A stretch of 40,993 nucleotides of DNA from a virus. Taxonomy: Duplodnaviria; Heunggongvirae; Uroviricota; Caudoviricetes. Every line of letters starts with the position of its first letter. Position 1 is the first letter of the stretch. The notes under the pieces are model-generated. The model worked only from the letters and a program-made list of their open reading frames with translations. It was not told the origin of the DNA and searched no databases. Both the position numbers and the translations under genes were made by a program. The stretch lies in IMG/VR virus record IMGVR_UViG_2563366956_000009; one strand, given 5' to 3'. Of the stretch, positions 358 to 40,993 are shown in pieces.

Positions 358-2750
358 TTAATACTCTCCCCCATTTGCGCATCAGTTAATTCTTTATGCC
401 AGAGACGAAGATTTCTCAAATGGCCGAATAGATGACGAGTTCCCGATGTGGCTTGACCTCCAATTCGAATAAAGGTCCGTGTTTTTACGCCCGTCCACTC
501 CGTTTTCATAGTTTTAGTAGCCTCACCGTTAGAAACTACTCGTTTAGTACCATCAGAATAAATATTAAAACCACCAATGAATTTTCGAACATCAGCTCGA
601 CCAGCAAACACACTAGAAACGTAAGTACTTGTCGACGCTTTATAAGTTTGCATATAAAGCTGACCGTAATATTTCTCAGTTGTGTTAAAAGCGTATGTAA
701 TTGACTCAATAGGTGGCACACCAGAAAAATCAAAAATACGCGGTGCTACATTAGGAGGAATATCGCCCCAATTTCTATTAACCTCGACAAGACACGTAAG
801 CGGTCTATTATAGATATTATTTTCAGTTGGGATCGTCACCATATCACTGGAGCGGGTTGCGGGTGCAGTTGTCGTAATAACAAAAGATGAAGCACATCCG
901 CCGTTTTCAAATTGTGGTGTTGCAAGGTAAATATAATCTCCCGCTTCAGTTATACCACCTTTTTTCGGCGCATACTGAATCATTGCGCCAATTAAGGTTT
1001 CACCTTCAACAGCTTCTATAGTTGCCTCATAGAAAATCCACCCTGTAACCGGATCTTTAGTTGCAGTAGCTGCTATTCTATTGGCTGCTCCGCCAGTTTT
1101 TTCTATTATCAGAGTTCCGAAAGTTAAATAAGCATCTCCTAAAAATGTATAAACCGACCCATCGTATTTTTCAAAACGCAAACGACAACGAAGACCATCA
1201 GGAGCTTTAACCCTGCATGAAACAGTGCAATACTTATTATCGCCACAAACATCAATCCCCCGGGATGCACTGCATGTATGCAGACTAAGTGCAGATGATT
1301 GTCCTGTCATATTATCTTTTGTTCGCATTTTGGCATATGAAAAACCAAATTCATCAACACCATTATTAGTTTTATCGATATTGCTGGTACTCGTCCATTC
1401 AGCGGGAGTATTGGATTTAACAAAATAGTTAGTGCGCTGTCCTTCAATCAATAAACCTTCTTTTTCAAATCGTGGCTCATCAATTTTAGCAACACTAAAT
1501 ACGCCTGATTTATTGATATATGTGGCAGTTGATGCGCGTTTAAACTTAACAACCTTGTCGCCAGGCATCGTTATTTCATCATCACCAATAACAATTTTTT
1601 TATATGACGGCGAAAAGCCCGTAATCATATCCAGTGAATCGTTAAACGGTATCCACACATCAGGCAGTGGCTGTAAGACATATTTATACGGCTCTGCTGC
1701 CTGACTTGCATACTCTCTGGCTGCGTCTTCACTTGCTTTAGCTGCTGTCTGGCTTGCTGCCGATGCTTTCGCCGAGTTCGCCGCTGCAGTCTCGCTTGTC
1801 TTTGCATTGGTTTCACTGGTTTTTGCTGCTTTTTGACTGTTGGCTGATGCAGTGGCAGAAGCAGCCGCCGCGCTTGCAGAACCAGCTGCAGCACTCTCGC
1901 TTTGGGCTGCTGCATCCTGACTGTTTTTCGCCGCAGTTTCGCTGGCTTTGGCATTCGTTTCGCTGGTCTTCGCTGCCGTCTGGCTGGACTTTGCGTTAGT
2001 TTCACTCGTCTTCGCAGCTTTCTGGCTGTTAGCCGCAGCAGTTGCTGATCCAGCTGCTGAAGTCGCAGAACCGGCTGCCGCGCTCTCGCTTTGGGCTGCT
2101 GCAACCTGGCTGTTTTTTGCCGCAGTTTCACTGGCTTTGGCATTCGTTTCGCTGGTTTTCGCTGCCGTCTGGCTGGACTTTGCGTTGGTTTCGCTCGTCT
2201 TTGCGGCTGTCTCGCTATTTTTCGCGTTGGTTTCTGATTTTTTGGCTGCTGTCGCGGAGTTTGCCGATGCAGTCTTTGAGGTCGCTGCCGCCTGTGCACT
2301 ATTAGCTGCATTCGTTTCTGAGGTTTTCGCCGCGTTCTTCGATGATGCCGCTGCAGTTTCGGATTTCTTTGCCGCCGCTGCGCTCTGAGAGGCGGCTTCA
2401 GCGTTGCGTGCCGCTTCTTCCACCATTTCCTCAAAACGACGCAATGCCTCCGGCATGACATCATCTTCCGTCATGGCACCGAGAAAATCATTCAGCGTCC
2501 CCGGCTTAGAATCTTCATACACGGTGATGGTCCCGGCATGTGAAGGCGAAAAACCTTCAACCAGCAGGATAACGCTGTACTGGCCATACTCAACATCCAT
2601 ACTGTAACGCCCGGCTTCATCCGGATTTTCTGAGGCCAGCGTGTTCACTACCACCGTGGTGCTGTTACGTTTTGCTTTCAGCTGGATTGAGCAGTTCTGT
2701 ACCGGTTTTCCTGTGCCGTCTTTCAGTACACCTGAAATCTTTACTGCCAT
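354..2750 (-). CDS. stf: side tail fibre protein (lambda Stf-like N-terminus, Ala/Thr/Ser-rich repeat shaft, distinct C-terminal receptor-binding region)
   Basis: 798 aa ORF; N-terminus MAVKISGVLKDGTGKPVQNC...GTITVYEDS matches lambda Stf as remembered; central AAKTSETNAKSSQ repeats; C-terminal ...RHLFGHLRNLRLWHKELTDAQMGE motif. Confidence 0.85.
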   Translation of the reverse strand: MAVKISGVLKDGTGKPVQNCSIQLKAKRNSTTVVVNTLASENPDEAGRYSMDVEYGQYSVILLVEGFSPSHAGTITVYEDSKPGTLNDFLGAMTEDDVMPEALRRFEEMVEEAARNAEAASQSAAAAKKSETAAASSKNAAKTSETNAANSAQAAATSKTASANSATAAKKSETNAKNSETAAKTSETNAKSSQTAAKTSETNAKASETAAKNSQVAAAQSESAAAGSATSAAGSATAAANSQKAAKTSETNAKSSQTAAKTSETNAKASETAAKNSQDAAAQSESAAAGSASAAAASATASANSQKAAKTSETNAKTSETAAANSAKASAASQTAAKASEDAAREYASQAAEPYKYVLQPLPDVWIPFNDSLDMITGFSPSYKKIVIGDDEITMPGDKVVKFKRASTATYINKSGVFSVAKIDEPRFEKEGLLIEGQRTNYFVKSNTPAEWTSTSNIDKTNNGVDEFGFSYAKMRTKDNMTGQSSALSLHTCSASRGIDVCGDNKYCTVSCRVKAPDGLRCRLRFEKYDGSVYTFLGDAYLTFGTLIIEKTGGAANRIAATATKDPVTGWIFYEATIEAVEGETLIGAMIQYAPKKGGITEAGDYIYLATPQFENGGCASSFVITTTAPATRSSDMVTIPTENNIYNRPLTCLVEVNRNWGDIPPNVAPRIFDFSGVPPIESITYAFNTTEKYYGQLYMQTYKASTSTYVSSVFAGRADVRKFIGGFNIYSDGTKRVVSNGEATKTMKTEWTGVKTRTFIRIGGQATSGTRHLFGHLRNLRLWHKELTDAQMGESIK
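1740..2400. repeat. imperfect tandem repeats inside stf (about 189 bp unit, two near-identical copies plus degenerate shorter sub-repeats)
   Basis: The block starting gcactctcgctttgggctgctgca (about 1891) recurs as gcgctctcgctttgggctgctgca (about 2080) with roughly 90 percent identity over more than 130 bp. Confidence 0.6.
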
Positions 2751-34844: not shown

Positions 34845-35996
34845 TATTCCTCCTACAATCAATGTGCAATTACATTTAAACACACCTCAATTTGGCCGGA
34901 CATATAAATATCTAAACCAGAAAAAATCACTTACATAGCGTTACAAACTCTTTAGTCTAAAGGTTCATCGTAAAACATTCCCCATACTTATCAGTCCGTT
35001 CCGCGCCAGGTAGCTCATTGCCTTATCTGGCAACCTGTAATCAGGTTTCCGCTTTTTCAGTTGGCTGGTCGTTTAACCGACATAGTTAATCCATTAATCT
35101 AGTTGCCGGATGTTGGTGGATTTTCGCGTTTTAGTTGTTCATAAAAGTGCACAGCTTTAACCAGTTCTTCTGATGTAACGGGGACTGGTGAGGCAGTGAA
35201 TAAGGCCTGAATTTGATAGTTCGGCCTGTCGTTACAATCCTCTTTTTTCGGTACATATTTCCAGTCACCAGACCACTACTTCCCCTGAAAGTCCGTAACG
35301 CCTTTTTTTACGTAGCGATATCGCCATGCCACTGGTTTTGCTTGCCCCGCCGTTTCATGCCCTTCCTGATAATTAATCTCGCTCATTCATCGCCCCACTC
35401 ATCACAATATGCTTCGACCGGAGTTTTTCCCGCTTCATAGTCATCACGCTAGGATTCGACATCAGCAGCACTTCCACCGCGTAACTCACCATAGTCCATT
35501 AATAGTTCATCCCGCTCTTCAAAACTGATGTTATATTTAGCTGAACAAAAATCAGCCACTTTGTGCTTCCTCATCGTCTTTTATTTCGTGGTATGAGTAA
35601 TTGCAGTAGTTAAAGAAAATTTCTTATGCTCCGTCATGAATTTCCTCAGGTGTTGCGTCATCGTCCACTTCGAATACATCCTCAAAATCTCCACCAGCTA
35701 TTCCCGTTTCAATAATAATTTTGAACTTTCGCATTTCACTACCGCCCTTTCGGGCGGCCTCCTGATGTTCTGAGGGTGCAGAAATCCATCCGGTTAAGGA
35801 TTAAATTTTATTTACAGAACTGAATTTAATTATTCAGATATACGTATCTGTAGCCTTACGAATCTACTCACTGGATGCCTCTTTCATAAAAATAATCCAG
35901 TGGGTTTTATCGTTTTTTCCCTGTTCGTTGACAGATAACAGGTTTTCTGTCTGTCAGTGCCAGAATCTGGCTTACCGGTATTTGCGTTTCATTCCA

Positions 35997-36353
35997 TTAA
36001 AAAATCAGAACGCCGTGCGGCCTCAACACCCGAAAGGCTTCTTTAAATCTCTGTCGCGAATCATCACGCCAGGCATCTTTATTCAGCCGTCCATATTTCT
36101 TTCCCATCCAGGCGTTATCACCAACACTCTCAAGATGCGGAGGGTCTAATACAACCATCGAAAAAGATGCGTCTGCAAATGATAATGCACGAAAATCTGC
36201 GATAATGTCAGGGCTGATAATCAAGCGTCTCCCATTGCGTAATGTGTATCCTTCTTTTCTGATATCGCTGAATATCGCCCGTTCGTCAGACTTATCGAAC
36301 CAGAACATGCGGCTGCCACAGCACATATCAAGAATGGTTGCCGGTGCACTCAC
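35997..36353 (-). pseudogene. DNA methyltransferase, N-terminal fragment (N6-adenine/N4-cytosine type), apparently truncated
   Basis: 118 aa with motif I-like ILDMCCGS and motif IV-like VVLDPPH, then an abrupt stop with no continuing reading frame. Confidence 0.5.
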
Positions 36354-36772
36354 TGCGCCACGTCCTGAAAATTACCCTGATAGAAAGCCAGTATGCGCTG
36401 CATAACTTCGCTCTTCCGGCACTCGCGACAGATTATGTTTAGGCGACTGTCGTAGCGACGTATTTCTCCGTCAGGTGATGACCAGATAAGGTCCGGATCA
36501 ACCACAGCAGGTTTCTTCACCTTTGCCCTCGAGAGTTTTTTGCGGGCGTTTTGCCAGTCCTTACGCGCCTGTTCAGAGGGGAATAACCCGTAGCCGGAGT
36601 TGTATACATCGCCACTGGCTACCAGCTCTCTGGCAAGAACGCTCATCAGATATCTAGTCGCACCTGTTTTAGCTTCCAGTTGCCGTAACGTCTCACGGCC
36701 GCTCTGGCGCACGAGTTCCACCACCTGCCATTTAATTTTTTCCCGCTCTTCTTGTGTAAAAACTTTTGCCAC
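36350..36772 (-). CDS. hypothetical protein of the replication module (140 aa)
   Basis: MAKVFTQEEREKIKWQVVELVRQSGRETLRQLEAKTGATRYLMSVLARELV...; immediately downstream of the O-like gene, stop overlaps the next start. Confidence 0.5.
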   Translation of the reverse strand: MAKVFTQEEREKIKWQVVELVRQSGRETLRQLEAKTGATRYLMSVLARELVASGDVYNSGYGLFPSEQARKDWQNARKKLSRAKVKKPAVVDPDLIWSSPDGEIRRYDSRLNIICRECRKSEVMQRILAFYQGNFQDVAQ

Positions 36773-36812
36773 AAGTCCCCCTTAAAATTACCTCATGACC
36801 TGAAATCAACAC

Positions 36813-37778
36813 TTATCCTCTGAAACCAGGCGGAATTTCTGTATCCGGTTCAGAAATATGATTAACACAACGCTGTACAGGTGAACGTCCCAGGCGGATG
36901 ACCAGTTCGTCCCATTTTTCGCGGAGCTTTGACGGGCTCATGATGTTTTTTACCCAGAATGGATCTCGCTGAACCCGACCAAACATTTCGCAAATTTGTC
37001 TGTGGCTTCTGCCATCCAGCATCCGCATTGTGCGCACGTCATTGGCCCAGGCAGTCCAGTTAGGCTCTTTTGGTCGCATGATCTCGCCATCATCACTGGC
37101 TGCCTGTTCGTAGAGACCCACGATCCGCCCCCAGATCCACTGCGCACACGCCAAATCCTCCCTGCTACCCCACTGGCGTTTTTTCGCACTAAACACAACC
37201 GCGTCGGAGTTCCGGGTTAAAAAATCCTGTTCAGTCGTCTGCGGGTCCGGTTGCGAAGCTTCCGGACGAAAAGTGTTTTTATTCTCTGTAGTAATCTCTG
37301 TTGTATTCTCTGTAAGATCATCAGGCCATTTTGACCCGATGACATTGGGTCGTTTTGAACCAATGGAGCGTTTCATTTTGACCTCTTCCATCGTGTCATT
37401 TTGACCTGATGGAGCGGCGCATTTTGAACCGATGGATTCGCTCAATTTGCCACCATCTAAAAGCTCGCTCCCATAGTTGATCGTGTAGAAATTGGTCATA
37501 TCGCGCTTTGATTTATTGAGCTTTTCACAACGCAAAAGCCCCAGCGTTTTCAGACTTGCAAACGCGCGCTTTAACGTTGACTCTGACCAGAATGGGAACT
37601 GTTCCAGCCATTGTTCCGTTGTGTTATAAATCCAGCGAACACCATCACATTCCATGCCGGAGTTGGTATCTCTCAACCAGTAGTGCAGTTGTTGCAAAAC
37701 AATGGCTTCGTTTAAGCCAATTTTCATTGCCAGCTGCGTGTTTATAACCAGTGGGCGTTCAGCAAAAAGAAGGCTCAT
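36813..37778 (-). CDS. replication initiator (lambda O-like) containing the origin iterons
   Basis: ATG at MSLLFAERPLVINTQLAMKIGLNEAIVLQQLHYW...; mid-gene ...SIGSK...SIGSK...VIGSK... repeats are encoded by the iteron DNA; upstream TTG start at 37832 also possible. Confidence 0.7.
   Translation of the reverse strand: MSLLFAERPLVINTQLAMKIGLNEAIVLQQLHYWLRDTNSGMECDGVRWIYNTTEQWLEQFPFWSESTLKRAFASLKTLGLLRCEKLNKSKRDMTNFYTINYGSELLDGGKLSESIGSKCAAPSGQNDTMEEVKMKRSIGSKRPNVIGSKWPDDLTENTTEITTENKNTFRPEASQPDPQTTEQDFLTRNSDAVVFSAKKRQWGSREDLACAQWIWGRIVGLYEQAASDDGEIMRPKEPNWTAWANDVRTMRMLDGRSHRQICEMFGRVQRDPFWVKNIMSPSKLREKWDELVIRLGRSPVQRCVNHISEPDTEIPPGFRG
37261..37456. repeat. ori: putative replication origin: six iterons (about 18 bp, CATTTTGAMCYGATGGA-like, 23-24 bp spacing) plus adjacent AT-rich TTCTCTGTA repeats
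   Basis: Repeats beginning at about 37326, 37350, 37373, 37397, 37420 and 37443; AT-rich tattctctgtagtaatctctgttgtattctctgtaag at 37280..37320. Confidence 0.65.
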
Positions 37779-38280
37779 AATTCCATCCAGCTTTTTGTTG
37801 GTATTGCTGTCGATACGCAAGTTTGAAAGCAATTGCTTTTTCTATAAGTTCGTCAGTTTCACGATCCACTACGGCAGGATCAGCAAAAAGCAGTCCGGAC
37901 TCCACCACATCGCCATATTCTTTGTTTAATCCGGCGATCATGTACGTAATGCTTTTTCCATCACTGATCTCACGATACAACCTGAAATCATTAATCCGGA
38001 TAGCCTCCATAATTGCAGGCACTAGCGCCGTGAACTTTTCACGCTTATCCCTGGTGTCGATAGCCTTCCAGCGTTCAAATATCTTCACTCGATTAACGCC
38101 AAGCGCTCGCTGATCAATCGCGCCACCTTCATATGTGACACGCTGAACATCGATGTTCGGGCGCTCTTTCAAAGCCCAGAATGCTTCAGTGATTAATATC
38201 GTCGCCTGCTCCTGTGTCATTCCTGGTCGACATATCCAGGCATCCAGAGCCTCACGAGCCTGTTCAGGAGTGATTTTCAT
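37759..38280 (-). CDS. hypothetical protein in the cII-equivalent position (173 aa)
   Basis: MKITPEQAREALDAWICRPGMTQEQATILITEAFWALKERPNIDVQRV...; directly downstream of the cro-like dicC. Confidence 0.5.
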   Translation of the reverse strand: MKITPEQAREALDAWICRPGMTQEQATILITEAFWALKERPNIDVQRVTYEGGAIDQRALGVNRVKIFERWKAIDTRDKREKFTALVPAIMEAIRINDFRLYREISDGKSITYMIAGLNKEYGDVVESGLLFADPAVVDRETDELIEKAIAFKLAYRQQYQQKAGWNYEPSFC

Positions 38281-38494
38281 TGTTCAACCGCCCCGCCCGC
38301 TTCGTCTTACGATATTCATCATAAACTTTGGGATCATACTGAAGCTCCCCGCCAGATGCCTCCTGTAGACGCATCGCGCGACCTTCGGGAACTAAATCCC
38401 CTTTCCAGCTATAAAGCGAAGCCAAACGAATACCTGCTGCTTGTGCAAGTTTTGTTTTTGAACCGAAATACAAAAGAGCGTCAGTTTTAAGCAT
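38264..38494 (-). CDS. dicC: Cro-like repressor DicC
   Basis: 76 aa MLKTDALLYFGSKTKLAQAAGIRLASLYSWKGDLVPEGRAMRLQEASGGELQYDPKVYDEYRKTKRAGRLNNENHS; divergent from dicA. Confidence 0.9.
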   Translation of the reverse strand: MLKTDALLYFGSKTKLAQAAGIRLASLYSWKGDLVPEGRAMRLQEASGGELQYDPKVYDEYRKTKRAGRLNNENHS

Positions 38495-38577
38495 TTAAAA
38501 CACCTTTATTGTTAGTCATAACTAACAAGATAGATGTTAACAAAAACATAGTCAATACGATTTAGCATTAGCTAACT
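38495..38577. promoter_or_regulatory. dicA-dicC divergent promoter/operator region
   Basis: Perfect palindrome TTGTTAGT-CATA-ACTAACAA at 38509..38528 and second inverted repeat TTAGC-N4-GCTAA at about 38562..38575. Confidence 0.7.
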
Positions 38578-38985
38578 ATGGAAACAAAAAATTTAACTAT
38601 CGGCGAACGCATCAGGTATCGTCGGAAAAACCTCAAACACACCCAAAGGTCTCTTGCTAAAGCCCTGAAAATCTCCCATGTGTCTGTATCACAATGGGAA
38701 CGGGGTGATAGTGAACCTACAGGGAAGAACCTTTTTGCCCTCAGCAAAGTATTGCAATGCTCACCAACATGGATTCTATTTGGCGATGAAGACAAGCAAC
38801 CAACACCACCTGTTGAGAAGCCAGTTGCCTTATCCCCCAAAGAACTAGAGCTCCTTGAGCTGTTTAATGCACTGCCAGAATCAGAACAGGATACCCAGCT
38901 CGCCGAAATGCGAGCTCGAGTAAAAAACTTCAATAAACTCTTTGAAGAATTACTAAAAGCCCGTCAGCGGACAAATAAAAGATAA
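38578..38985 (+). CDS. dicA: HTH (XRE family) repressor DicA, CI-like
   Basis: 135 aa METKNLTIGERIRYRRKNLKHTQRSLAKALKISHVSVSQWERGDSEPTGKNLFALSKVLQCSPTWILFGDED... Confidence 0.9.
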   Translation: METKNLTIGERIRYRRKNLKHTQRSLAKALKISHVSVSQWERGDSEPTGKNLFALSKVLQCSPTWILFGDEDKQPTPPVEKPVALSPKELELLELFNALPESEQDTQLAEMRARVKNFNKLFEELLKARQRTNKR

Positions 38986-39016
38986 CATCATCAATGAGTT
39001 ATCTTTTACCACATCA

Positions 39017-39080
39017 ATTATGTTAGCTATAGCATACAAAATCACTTGACCGATATGTTAGTCATGGCTAATCTTGTTTG
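39017..39080 (+). promoter_or_regulatory. putative promoter/operator of the dicB operon downstream of dicA
   Basis: TTGACC -35-like hexamer, operator-like ATGTTAGTCATGGCTAAT resembling the dicA-dicC palindrome, and palindrome GCTATAGC. Confidence 0.5.
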
Positions 39081-39151
39081 CATCAACACACCGCACGGTG
39101 TTCTCAGCAAACAGTTCCGCTACCCCAGCGTTAAGGGGAAATGAGGTCAGC

Positions 39152-39307
39152 ATGGATACTATCGATCTTGGCAACAACGAATCTCTGGTGTACGGCGTGT
39201 TTCCAAACCAGGACGGCACGTTCACCGCAATGACGTATACCAAAAGCAAAACGTTTAAAACCGAAAATGGTGCCCGTCGCTGGCTGGAAAGAAACTCAGG
39301 TGAGTGA
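39152..39307 (+). CDS. ydfA: YdfA (51 aa)
   Basis: MDTIDLGNNESLVYGVFPNQDGTFTAMTYTKSKTFKTENGARRWLERNSGE with GAGG RBS. Confidence 0.75.
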   Translation: MDTIDLGNNESLVYGVFPNQDGTFTAMTYTKSKTFKTENGARRWLERNSGE

Positions 39308-39308
39308 T

Positions 39309-39437
39309 ATGGATTTCGACACAATCATGGAAAAGGCTTACGAAGAATACTTCGAAGGCCTTGCCGAAGGCGAAGAAGCTCTCAGCTTCAGTGAGTTTAA
39401 ACAGGCGCTTTCCAGTTCGGCAAAATCTAACGGCTGA
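39309..39437 (+). CDS. ydfB: YdfB (42 aa)
   Basis: Hand-translated MDFDTIMEKAYEEYFEGLAEGEEALSFSEFKQALSSSAKSNG; ATG 1 nt after the ydfA stop; coordinates within about 1 nt. Confidence 0.6.
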   Translation: MDFDTIMEKAYEEYFEGLAEGEEALSFSEFKQALSSSAKSNG

Positions 39438-39466
39438 TAAGCGAAACAGCACCGCGAGGAATCAGT

Positions 39467-39685
39467 ATGCAGAAACGAGAACCCGTCATCATCGCGCCAG
39501 ACTATACCGATGATGAACTTTATGAGTGGATGCGCCAGAAAATTAATGCAGCGCAGGATCTGAAATGGGCTAATGAAGCCAGGGCTAAGCAGGCTGAAAA
39601 TCTGTCCGCTCTGGAGCAGGATATCACCAATCTGGAAAAAGCAGCGGCATTAAGCATTGCCAGAATGATTACATACCCGCGTTAG
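39467..39685 (+). CDS. ydfC: YdfC (72 aa)
   Basis: MQKREPVIIAPDYTDDELYEWMRQKINAAQDLKWANEARAKQAENLSALEQDITNLEKAAALSIARMITYPR. Confidence 0.8.
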   Translation: MQKREPVIIAPDYTDDELYEWMRQKINAAQDLKWANEARAKQAENLSALEQDITNLEKAAALSIARMITYPR

Positions 39686-40025
39686 TAGCTAATCAACAAA
39701 GCTAAGGTTAGTAATTAAGGAGTTCTCCACGGGTGAGGTGGAGTGCGTGCGCCGGACACGGGTGCGCATCCGGAACTGACAGTTTACTGAAAGGATATTT
39801 CCCTGAAAAGTCAGACCATAACGCGAAAGCGCACGGCGAGGTAGCTGGTTCATAGATAGCCTGTCGTTAAATTTTCGTCGACCGTGCGCTTCCGGTTGTG
39901 GCAACCCGCGAAATGGCGCGGCGGTAAGTATGGCGGGGTTATTCCTTCCCCGTTGAGGACACCGGGTTGTCAGGTTGACCATACGCTTAAGTGACAACCC
40001 CGCTGCAACGCCCTCTGTTATCAAT

Positions 40026-40083
40026 TTTCTGGTGACGTTTGGCGGTATCAGTTTTACTCCGTGACTGCTCTGCCGCCCTTTTT
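40026..40083 (+). ncRNA. dicF: DicF small regulatory RNA (processed from the dicB operon transcript)
   Basis: TTTCTGGTGACGTTTGGCGGTATCAGTTTTACTCCGTGACTGCTCTGCCGCCCTTTTT matches DicF as remembered, ending in a GC stem and U-run; ends approximate. Confidence 0.7.
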
Positions 40084-40252
40084 AAAGTGAATTTTGTGAT
40101 GTGGTGAATGCGGCTGAGCGCACGCGGAACAGTTAAAACCAAAAACAGTGTTATGGGTGGATTCTCTGTATCCGGCGTTAATTGTTAACTGGTTAACGTC
40201 ACCTGGAGGCACCAGGCACTGCATCACAAAATTCATTGTTGAGGACGCGATA

Positions 40253-40441
40253 ATGAAAACGTTATTACCAAACGTTAATACGTCTGAAGGTTGTTTTGAA
40301 ATTGGTGTCACTATCAGTAACCCAGTATTTACTGAAGATGCCATTAACAAGAGAAAACAAGAACGGGAGCTATTAAATAAAATATGCATTGTTTCAATGC
40401 TGGCTCGTTTACGTCTGATGCCAAAAGGATGTGCACAATGA
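40253..40441 (+). CDS. dicB: cell division inhibitor DicB
   Basis: 62 aa MKTLLPNVNTSEGCFEIGVTISNPVFTEDAINKRKQERELLNKICIVSMLARLRLMPKGCAQ. Confidence 0.9.
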   Translation: MKTLLPNVNTSEGCFEIGVTISNPVFTEDAINKRKQERELLNKICIVSMLARLRLMPKGCAQ

Positions 40442-40629
40442 ATTCAGCATTTGTGCTTGTTCTGACAGTTTTTCTTGTTTCCGGAGAGCCAGTTGATATT
40501 GCAGTCAGTGTTCACAGGACAATGCAGGAGTGTATGACTGCAGCAACCGAACAGAAAATTCCCGGTAACTGTTACCCGGTCGATAAAGTTATTCACCAGG
40601 ATAATATCGAAATCCCGGCAGGTCTTTAA
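40438..40629 (+). CDS. ydfD: YdfD (63 aa)
   Basis: MNSAFVLVLTVFLVSGEPVDIAVSVHRTMQECMTAATEQKIPGNCYPVDKVIHQDNIEIPAGL; start overlaps dicB stop; N-terminal hydrophobic segment. Confidence 0.8.
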   Translation: MNSAFVLVLTVFLVSGEPVDIAVSVHRTMQECMTAATEQKIPGNCYPVDKVIHQDNIEIPAGL

Positions 40630-40721
40630 AACAGTTCCGTAATAAATATCCGGTTTCATTCTTATATGCCAACAATGGCAGGGATTTGTTCATCCTTAAA
40701 TCTGTCATGAGGTTAAAACAA

Positions 40722-40993
40722 ATGAGTAAAGTCTTTATTTGCGCCGCTATTCCTGACGAACTGGCAACAAGGGAAGAAGGCGCTGTGGCTGTAGCCACAG
40801 CCATTGAAGCTGGCGACGAACGCCGTGCTCGAGCAAAATTTCACTGGCAATTCCTGGAACATTATCCGGCTGCTCAGGACTGCGCTTATAAATTTATTGT
40901 CTGCGAGGATAAACCTGGCATACCCCGCCCTGCCCTCGATTCATGGGATGCTGAATATATGCAGGAAAACCGCTGGGATGAGGAGTCTGCTTC
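40722..40993 (+). CDS. hypothetical protein (YdfE-like), 5' part, runs off window end
   Basis: MSKVFICAAIPDELATREEGAVAVATAIEAGDERRARAKFHWQFLEHYPAAQDCAYKFIVCEDKPGIPRPALDSWDAEYMQENRWDEES... with GAGG RBS. Confidence 0.5.
   Translation, partial: MSKVFICAAIPDELATREEGAVAVATAIEAGDERRARAKFHWQFLEHYPAAQDCAYKFIVCEDKPGIPRPALDSWDAEYMQENRWDEESA

Follow-up and report, generated by a model that had tools for sequence, protein, structure and literature searches.

A probable iteron-driven replication origin embedded in the initiator gene of a Qin-type lambdoid prophage without a P gene

In phage lambda the replication origin resides in the middle of the initiator gene, where iterons are followed by an AT-rich tract, and this gene is part of the pR operon (PMC7466680). 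The Shiga toxin (Stx) phages 933W and P27 carry six iterons. Among 314 lambdoid phages of Enterobacteriales, 34 have an O homolog only, and this 'O-only' replication type is described as unstudied and not yet understood; growth of one phage with an O-only module, LLS, depends on RecBCD/Chi recombination (PMC12315714). In the bacterial host, dnaT and dnaC form one operon and interact genetically, and a structural paper of 2026 lists among the unknowns how the DnaT preprimosome recruits DnaB/DnaC (PMC13377028). We describe here the initiator gene of the virus record IMGVR_UViG_2563366956_000009, and the DNA repeats that it hosts. The whole record, 40,993 nucleotides long, was analysed and is called the window. 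It is an Escherichia coli lambdoid prophage of the Qin/DicA-DicC type and, since positions 16000-40993 are 99.4% identical to Escherichia phage PhiR42_1 over 100% of the length, it is essentially that phage. Both fit the definition of an O-only module, having a single O-family gene and no helicase or loader gene. Judging from its sequence and from the analogy with lambda, the prophage very probably carries an iteron-driven origin of the lambda type within the initiator gene.

The elements on which this reading is based are the following.

36813..37778, minus strand: initiator gene, 321 residues (966-bp coding sequence, ATG at 37778, stop at 36813-36815)
37237..37460, no strand assigned: full DNA-constrained block, the proposed origin, delimited by a sliding profile of synonymous differences and by per-base diversity
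37319..37457, minus strand: iteron array of six 23-bp units, detected by repeat finders including Tandem Repeats Finder (TRF)
37277..37318, minus strand: AT-rich segment with three 12-bp repeats, the presumed DNA-unwinding element
37245..37267, minus strand: GC-rich inverted repeat GTCCGG-N11-CCGGAC, with per-base diversity near zero

The six units of the array (37319-37341, 37343-37365, 37366-37388, 37389-37411, 37412-37434 and 37435-37457) are spaced by 23 or 24 bp; five are strong, and the sixth, 37435-37457, is weak. The original prediction had rightly described six repeats at a regular spacing of 23-24 bp, and had taken the unit to be about 18 bp long, which must be corrected to about 23 bp. 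The core reads CATTTTGAC on the plus strand and GGTCAAAATG on the gene strand, where the unit consensus is CCATCGGGTCAAAATGACC. The core is flanked by dyad arms (CATCnGG...CCnGATG) that are clear in three units, as expected of sites bound by dimers. The periodicity is exceptional. Self-similarity at lag 23 reaches 0.59 in the array, against a window mean of 0.25 +/- 0.044, and is the window-wide maximum at that lag; moreover, the three exact copies of GGTCAAAATG present in the 41-kb window are all located within the array.

The repeats are in the middle of the initiator open reading frame (ORF), as had been proposed. The array corresponds to codons 108-167 of 321, the six units alone to codons 108-153, and all origin elements (iterons, 12-mers, inverted repeat) fall within codons 108-178. 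Because 23 is not a multiple of 3, units are set in differing reading frames: codon phases are 0, 2, 1, 0 and 0 in the five strong units and 1 in the weak sixth, so that three frames are represented. The notion that the repeats also encode IGSK protein repeats is correct for three units only, which encode (S)IGSK. The peptide repeat is an incidental by-product of the DNA repeat. Given the 23-bp period, losing one unit would shift the frame. Natural E. coli variants of the protein, 290 residues long (P0016-P0021), miss exactly 31 residues (93 nt, corresponding to 37344-37436 of the window). The deletion spans from the IGSK of unit 1 to the IGSK of unit 5, is inter-iteron and leaves two units, and recalls the ori- deletions of lambda.

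An AT-rich segment with repeats had been noticed next to the iterons, and is confirmed. GC content is 0.33-0.35 across 37260-37319, directly past the iterons as the gene is read, and three 12-mers of the TATTCTCTGTAG family are found at 37280-37315 (on the gene strand ACAGAGAnTACw, TACAGAGAATAC-like); exact copies of TACAGAGAATA are missing in the rest of the window. The tandem ACAGAGAnTAC motif (ACAGAGANTAC) has been identified only in loci featuring this type of N-terminal domain or one related type, and always in this position. Such loci include Pseudomonas and Staphylococcus elements (see also L003 2966-3000, L006 2969-2991 and L169 1956-1978). Inside the motif, threonine is encoded by ACA or ACT in 71 of 74 instances, compared with 104 of 225 elsewhere in the same genes, the glutamate codon is always GAG, and one of the Staphylococcus copies is read in a different frame. 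The codon bias and the alternate frame argue for a DNA signal, not for mere AT-richness or a TETTTE peptide. Rather than generic AT-rich DNA, the 12-mers may be an unwinding element specific to the initiator, which would itself recognize them. The inverted repeat at 37245-37267 marks the far end of the conserved block. DnaA boxes were sought as an alternative route of helicase recruitment; none is found in the origin, the nearest being at 36753, and their count is at chance level.

Support for a role of the repeats as DNA comes from a codon alignment of 52 distinct homologous genes (68-100% protein identity), drawn from genome and viral contigs, in which synonymous differences were counted between pairs having the same residue. 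They amount to 0.29 in the N-terminal domain and 0.34 in the C-terminal domain; the corresponding values of the iterons and the 12-mers are 0.064 and 0.011. Amino acid differences are not reduced in the iterons (0.23). Nucleotide diversity at the three codon positions is.12/.06/.33 in the N-terminal domain, the usual coding pattern, and.11/.13/.12 in the iterons, where the invariant bases are those of the TCAAAA.G core and of the CCAT flank. The 12-mer block is almost invariant as well (nucleotide diversity 0.028). Units in three reading frames, low synonymous differences and a flat codon-position profile concur in indicating that constraint acts on DNA, not on protein. The conserved block, about 220 bp long, includes the six iterons, the three 12-mers and the inverted repeat. 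The interval 37261-37456 originally assigned to the origin does contain the repeats, and falls short of the block, which extends to about 37237. The block coincides with the region encoding a predicted disordered linker (residues 108-175), which suggests that the protein tolerates there a sequence that the DNA dictates.

The same layout is recurrent in distant elements. In Klebsiella phage vB_VIPKPNMC05 there are six 23-bp units (CATCAGGTCAAAATGACACGATG) along with three ACAGAGAATACA repeats, the units of Hafnia phage yong2 are likewise 23 bp long but differ in the core (GGGACAAATTGTCC), and in Pseudomonas phage USP_25 five 23-bp GGGCAwwwwGCC units, recognized by eye, are accompanied by two TACAGAGACTAC repeats. 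A 42-kb element of Staphylococcus hominis encodes the same N-terminal domain and carries three 23-bp units (CATCGGGACAAAATGACCCGACG) and the same 12-mers; the iteron cores of the Staphylococcus and E. coli elements are near-identical, and their N-terminal domains only about 45% identical. A Shigella phage with a different N-terminal domain has 15-bp iterons, and the four iterons of lambda were seen in the same comparison. The survey covered 80 loci, one genome per species. The strongest periodic array is inside the initiator gene in about 70 of them, in the large majority at residues 90-150, and both the sequence and the period of the array (23, 15, 22 or 24 bp) follow the type of N-terminal domain. 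A pseudogene version of the initiator, frameshifted near codon 98, is found in one viral contig (L123 4001-4941).

The initiator is a mosaic protein, made of a winged-helix-like N-terminal domain, a C-terminal domain of the lambda O type and a tail resembling the end of DnaT.

37458..37778, minus strand: N-terminal domain, residues 1-107, a predicted winged-helix DNA-binding domain and presumed iteron reader (AlphaFold2 and Foldseek)
36891..37232, minus strand: C-terminal domain, residues 183-296, homologous to its counterpart in lambda O
36816..36878, minus strand: C-terminal tail VQRCVNHISEPDTEIPPGFRG, closely resembling the final 20 residues of E. coli DnaT; candidate docking motif for the helicase-loading machinery of the host

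That the ORF encodes an O-like initiator, as first suggested, is borne out by the match to PHROG 391 'replication initiation O-like' (1e-91) and by residues 170-294, which share 36% identity with the C-terminal half of lambda O (2e-16, tblastn). Across 20 diverse sequences, lambda O among them, P239, W244, N246, R249, F274, W275, L285 and R286 are invariant. The family is large, with 12,343 cluster representatives at E <= 0.001, and homologs of the N-terminal domain are found in phages of Klebsiella, Hafnia, Pseudomonas, Staphylococcus and Bacillus. The protein is labelled 'DNA replication protein O' in the record of PhiR42_1 (host ECOR13), and the same 966-bp coding sequence is a 'hypothetical protein' in the Prokaryotic Genome Annotation Pipeline (PGAP) annotation of E. 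coli ATCC 8739. Pfam returned no match for the initiator at E <= 0.01, and NCBIfam nothing useful beyond a weak match to the DnaT tail. In a sequence search of the PDB, a match to YteR was discarded as spurious, and the DnaT tail was the sole other match. The likeness to the lambda arrangement that had been proposed holds for the mid-gene array and the AT-rich DNA downstream, and does not extend to the N-terminal domain, which is not the Pfam domain of lambda O.

An AlphaFold2 model was obtained from a shallow alignment of 13 sequences, and has a mean predicted local distance difference test (pLDDT) score of 55. In the model the N-terminal domain is folded at residues 10-101, with helices and a beta-hairpin at residues 14-101 (pLDDT about 60-69), residues 108-175 are disordered (pLDDT 23-32), the C-terminal domain is helical at residues 183-296 (pLDDT 65-83), and the tail is disordered. 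All top Foldseek matches of the N-terminal domain are winged-helix DNA binders, the best being 5kbj, a Rep-DNA complex, and 4pql, yet the matches are weak (E 0.07, target template modelling score 0.46) and only suggestive because of the low confidence of the model.

The original prediction remarked on the lack of an obvious P/DnaC-like loader after the initiator. The remark is correct, and can be extended to the entire window, where Pfam, PHROG and tblastn searches found none. References for lambda P and DnaC-like proteins gave no similarity anywhere in the 41 kb (tblastn), and a near-identical, fully annotated prophage has no P or DnaC gene. Having no P, the prophage would obtain its helicase by means other than a phage P protein. 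The initiator ends with 20 residues (..RCVNHISEPDTEIPPGFRG) of which 14 (70%, E 9e-8 by BLASTP) are identical to those in the tail of E. coli DnaT (..RDVNTVSEPDSQIPPGFRG). A deeper homology, linking the DnaT C-terminal domain to the lambda-O-type domain, was considered and rejected, as both hhalign and BLASTP align the tail alone. The ending ..IPxGFRG is also found in initiators with other N-terminal domains and even with another type of C-terminal domain (Phg_2220_C), phage LLS included; some records name initiators with this ending 'primosomal protein (I)'. The string PPGFRG was not found in this context in the literature searched. A comparison of the Proteus DnaT tail with the tails of Proteus/Providencia phage initiators was dropped, as the match turned out to be a prophage replisome organizer and not DnaT.

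The type of tail is correlated to the gene that comes next. Counts refer to initiators with a lambda-O-type C-terminal domain only.

Tryptophan-type tail (..HWNSAEAWENTL, ..NTDWIYGVDL), genomes: lambda P next in 30 of 30; DnaC-like gene 0; no loader 0
Tryptophan-type tail, viral contigs: lambda P next in 1 of 1; DnaC-like gene 0; no loader 0
GFRG (DnaT-like) tail, genomes: lambda P next in 0 of 19; DnaC-like gene 2; no loader 17
GFRG (DnaT-like) tail, viral contigs: lambda P next in 0 of 79; DnaC-like gene 22; no loader 57

Altogether, P accompanies 31 of 31 tryptophan-type tails and none of the 98 DnaT-like tails, 24 of which are associated with a DnaC paralog and 74 with no loader. The contrast is seen again in at least four N-domain types, and thus is not the outcome of a single inherited event. 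Two loci are instructive. In L171, which has the same dicA-dicC-ydaT context as the window, the initiator is 70% identical and has the same type of N-terminal domain, and ends with ..DGWEDVL; lambda P and then DUF977 follow. DNA similarity between the window and this locus (81%) runs from 38600 to 36888, and ends at codon 297, where the tail starts. A mosaic junction exactly at this point suggests that tail and loader behave as an exchangeable cassette. In L114 the initiator is 95% identical and has the same DnaT-like tail, and a DnaC paralog (L114 4973-5719; PRK12377, 1.5e-153; DnaC model, 304 bits) begins 7 nt after its stop codon. About one fourth of the viral contigs with the same tail (L114, L109, L116, L119-L122, L145 and others) encode, immediately 3' of the initiator and in this order, a DnaC paralog, a 270-residue winged-helix protein and DUF977; in the window DUF977 comes directly after the initiator.

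Other parts of DnaT travel as well. Proteins with a 'DnaT-like ssDNA-binding domain' (DnaT residues ~78-153; ssDNA, single-stranded DNA), often fused to DUF1376, are encoded by many plasmids (e.g. H98-H136) and prophages, and in L172 one such protein (976-1941) precedes a gene that by eye is of the P type. DnaT parts hence recur in replisome organizers of mobile elements in more than one way.

The genes and signals surrounding the initiator in the prophage are listed below.

38578-38985, plus strand: dicA (ORF list, gene-family searches)
38264-38494, minus strand: dicC, Cro-like (ORF list, gene-family searches)
37759-38280, minus strand: YdaT/cII-like gene (ORF list, gene-family searches)
38527..38555, minus strand: pR-like promoter TTGACT-17-TATCTT, upstream of dicC (consensus scan only)
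36350..36772, minus strand: DUF977 gene, directly 3' of the initiator (Pfam DUF977, 5e-29; PHROG 142 'Ren-like exclusion protein')
35997-36353, minus strand: methyltransferase ORF, 118 residues (partial match, positions 52-165 of 229 in PHROG/Pfam profiles)
40027-40078, plus strand: DicF RNA (Rfam, 76.7 bits)

The pR-like promoter would drive an operon including dicC, the cII-like gene and the initiator, and hence transcription through the origin; no internal promoter or oop-like element stood out in the promoter scan, which revealed the pR-like site only. The DUF977 gene, which occupies the place expected of a loader, was considered as a loader and rejected, since in L171 DUF977 comes after P, and not in its place. 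The methyltransferase ORF appears truncated, and in relatives pseudogenes and a transposase are found further downstream. The region 38578-40441 hosts dicA, ydfA, ydfB, ydfC and dicB, which with DicF make up the cell-division-inhibition cassette of Qin-type prophages; besides DicF, the Rfam scan of 35500-40993 detected nothing. Far from the replication module, ORF 354-2750, probably a tail-fibre gene, contains a 189-bp tandem repeat (window 1782-2216, minus strand; 2.3 copies, 83% matches, sub-periods 21 and 42), which is in frame (63 codons).

A plausible scheme can be drawn by analogy with lambda. The winged-helix-like N-terminal domain would bind the iterons, probably as dimers on the dyad units, and build an 'O-some', which would open the adjacent 12-mer/AT-rich segment; transcription from the pR-like promoter would traverse the origin, as in lambda. 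The tail would be a loader-specific docking motif, and its DnaT-like version would address DnaC, host or phage-encoded, and via DnaC the DnaB helicase. That the tail of this initiator (..EPDTEIPPGFRG) docks onto the host DnaC-DnaB loading machinery, and so acquires the helicase without a phage P, is suggested by the comparison of relatives only, and has in our opinion a little less than an even chance of being correct. More tentative is the general form of the idea, in which ..IPxGFRG is a portable motif recruiting DnaC (or DnaB-DnaC), and its substitution for the P-specific tryptophan-type tail frees an O-type initiator from P. If true, this would explain O-only lambdoid replication, and point to the way the DnaT preprimosome recruits DnaB/DnaC.

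The helicase might reach a genuine origin by other routes. It could be loaded via PriA-PriB restart, with the tail docking onto PriA or PriB, or with O in place of DnaT; alternatively, replication could be mainly recombination-dependent. DnaT is a component of the preprimosome and contacts PriA through its C-terminal domain (PMC13377028), a RecE-type exonuclease is among the products of the prophage, and LLS, O-only and with the same type of tail, needs RecBCD/Chi recombination (PMC12315714). Still, GFRG tails co-occur with phage DnaC paralogs located directly downstream, as in the host dnaT-dnaC pair, which points to DnaC rather than to PriA, and what is shared with DnaT is the tail only, and neither the PriB-binding linker nor the ssDNA-binding domain. 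We regard these routes, of which PriA/PriB is the chief rival, as rather unlikely. It is improbable that the origin relies on a P-type loader provided in trans by another lambdoid prophage, or is a relic that no longer fires. The C-terminal domain is homologous to the half of lambda O that interacts with P, E. coli often hosts several related prophages (a 2-kb module of this region matches a median of 2 places per genome), and relatives have pseudogenes and a transposase downstream of the methyltransferase. However, P tracks the tail and not the C-terminal domain, being absent next to all 98 GFRG-tail initiators. Purifying selection on the origin block is strong, and the gene has remained intact; PhiR42_1, a deposited phage, has the same module, and LLS, a cultivated one, has an O-only module that is comparable.

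Two further hypotheses question the role of the repeats. They could bind the initiator chiefly for control, be it autoregulation, copy-number 'handcuffing' or exclusion of related phages. Plasmid iterons also act in control. Cloned lambda ori fragments are reported to inhibit related phages (PMC3349717). A conserved AT-rich 12-mer block, set in an order and position resembling lambda, fits an origin better, and the replication module revealed no second candidate, which makes control as the chief function very improbable. Finally, the periodicity could have no role in cis, and be either low complexity arisen by chance or a mere IGSK protein repeat, three of the units encoding (S)IGSK. This is hardly credible: units occur in three reading frames, diversity is flat over the codon positions, conservation at synonymous sites exceeds that of the flanking domains by a factor of 5-30, iteron cores of Staphylococcus and E. 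coli have remained near-identical in spite of N-terminal domains that are ~45% identical, and the lag-23 signal is the maximum of the window.

A number of points weigh against an origin of the lambda type served by this initiator and its tail. The N-terminal domain matches no Pfam family, Phage_rep_O of lambda included, and what supports a role in DNA binding is a model of low confidence (mean pLDDT 55), together with fold matches that are weak (E 0.07). Low synonymous diversity may partly reflect recent recombination of the segment between phages; this is not the whole story, given the flat codon-position profile and the amino acid differences that are retained. The tail and loader counts derive from related, mosaic sequences and are not independent events, and the literature on DnaT structure gives no statement of what the DnaT tail binds. 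The literature yielded no experiment on replication, binding or unwinding, either for the element or for the initiator family. The near-identity to PhiR42_1 and the purifying selection make it nonetheless likely that the origin is active, also because LLS, O-only as well, has been grown; in line with the original suggestion, we infer from sequence that the origin would be functional.

The module is anything but rare. The 2-kb stretch is found, at >=80% coverage, in 1584 of 5426 complete E. coli genomes. The origin block, at 80-87% identity, is also present in circular 'plasmid' records of about 40 kb (39-44 kb; H67, H68, H70, H71) from E. coli, Klebsiella and Enterobacter, which may be phage-plasmids or circularised phage genomes. 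An initiator family that has no Pfam model, and is called 'hypothetical protein' in RefSeq, is thus widespread in E. coli, and its relatives reach Pseudomonas and Staphylococcus. The covariation of tail and loader, by which P accompanies tryptophan-type tails, and DnaT-like tails have either a DnaC paralog or no loader next to them, offers a concrete hypothesis for the O-only class, and may bear on the recruitment of DnaB/DnaC by DnaT in replication restart (PMC13377028). Origins and iteron specificities determine the yield of prophage induction, the incompatibility of co-resident prophages and the quality of annotation.

A winged-helix N-terminal domain, iterons in the middle of the gene and a host-specific C-terminal part are typical of RepA_N plasmid initiators and of replisome organizers of the SPP1 G38P type. 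RepA_N initiators (5kbj, 4pql) are the best fold matches of the present N-terminal domain, but weak ones (E 0.07, low-confidence model), and the domain has no Pfam match to RepA_N or Phage_rep_org_N. With E. coli DnaT the initiator shares the last 20 residues, 70% identical and C-terminal in both proteins, and the order of initiator and DnaC paralog in close relatives, with a gap of 7 nt, resembles the host dnaT-dnaC operon. Nothing similar is found outside the tail, and with the NCBIfam model of DnaT the score is 16.2 bits (cutoff 201), from the last 20 residues only. The initiator has a short motif in common with DnaT, and is not a member of the DnaT family. With the O protein of LLS, an experimentally grown phage, it shares the O-only module, the intragenic iterons and the type of ending (..KIPEGFRG in LLS O); however, LLS O has an HTH_36-type N-terminal domain, 15-bp iterons and a Phg_2220_C-type C-terminal domain (as L003 and L004), so that the tail is the only part of the protein in common.

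With lambda the parallels are several. The origin is in both cases in the middle of the gene, with iterons and then an AT-rich tract in the same order, and the iterons are internally dyad-symmetric, with a TCAAAAyG-like A-tract at the centre. In the pR operon the initiator gene is preceded by the counterparts of cro and cII, and the C-terminal domains are homologous; six iterons are shared with the Stx phages. Unlike lambda O, which scores 5.7e-36 in the same library, the initiator has no match to PF04492 (Phage_rep_O), and the sequence of the iterons differs. There is no P gene, and DUF977 comes next; the tail is DnaT-like, in contrast to ..NTDWIYGVDL of lambda, and the ACAGAGAnTAC 12-mers are specific to the present family of N-terminal domains. 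Of the lambda O/P system the locus thus lacks the Phage_rep_O domain and the P partner, and retains the homology of the C-terminal domain. Three features of an intragenic origin of the lambda type are found, namely at least four dyad iterons about 20-24 bp apart in the middle of the gene, AT-rich DNA downstream and maintenance at the DNA level; for iteron binding by the initiator and for replication the support is indirect, from the covariation of iteron type with the type of N-terminal domain and from the near-identity to PhiR42_1. That a lambdoid initiator gene contains an iteron origin is textbook knowledge, and the origin class of the prophage is O-only; what is added to this picture is evidence at the DNA level, an origin module that crosses phyla, and the covariation of tail and loader.

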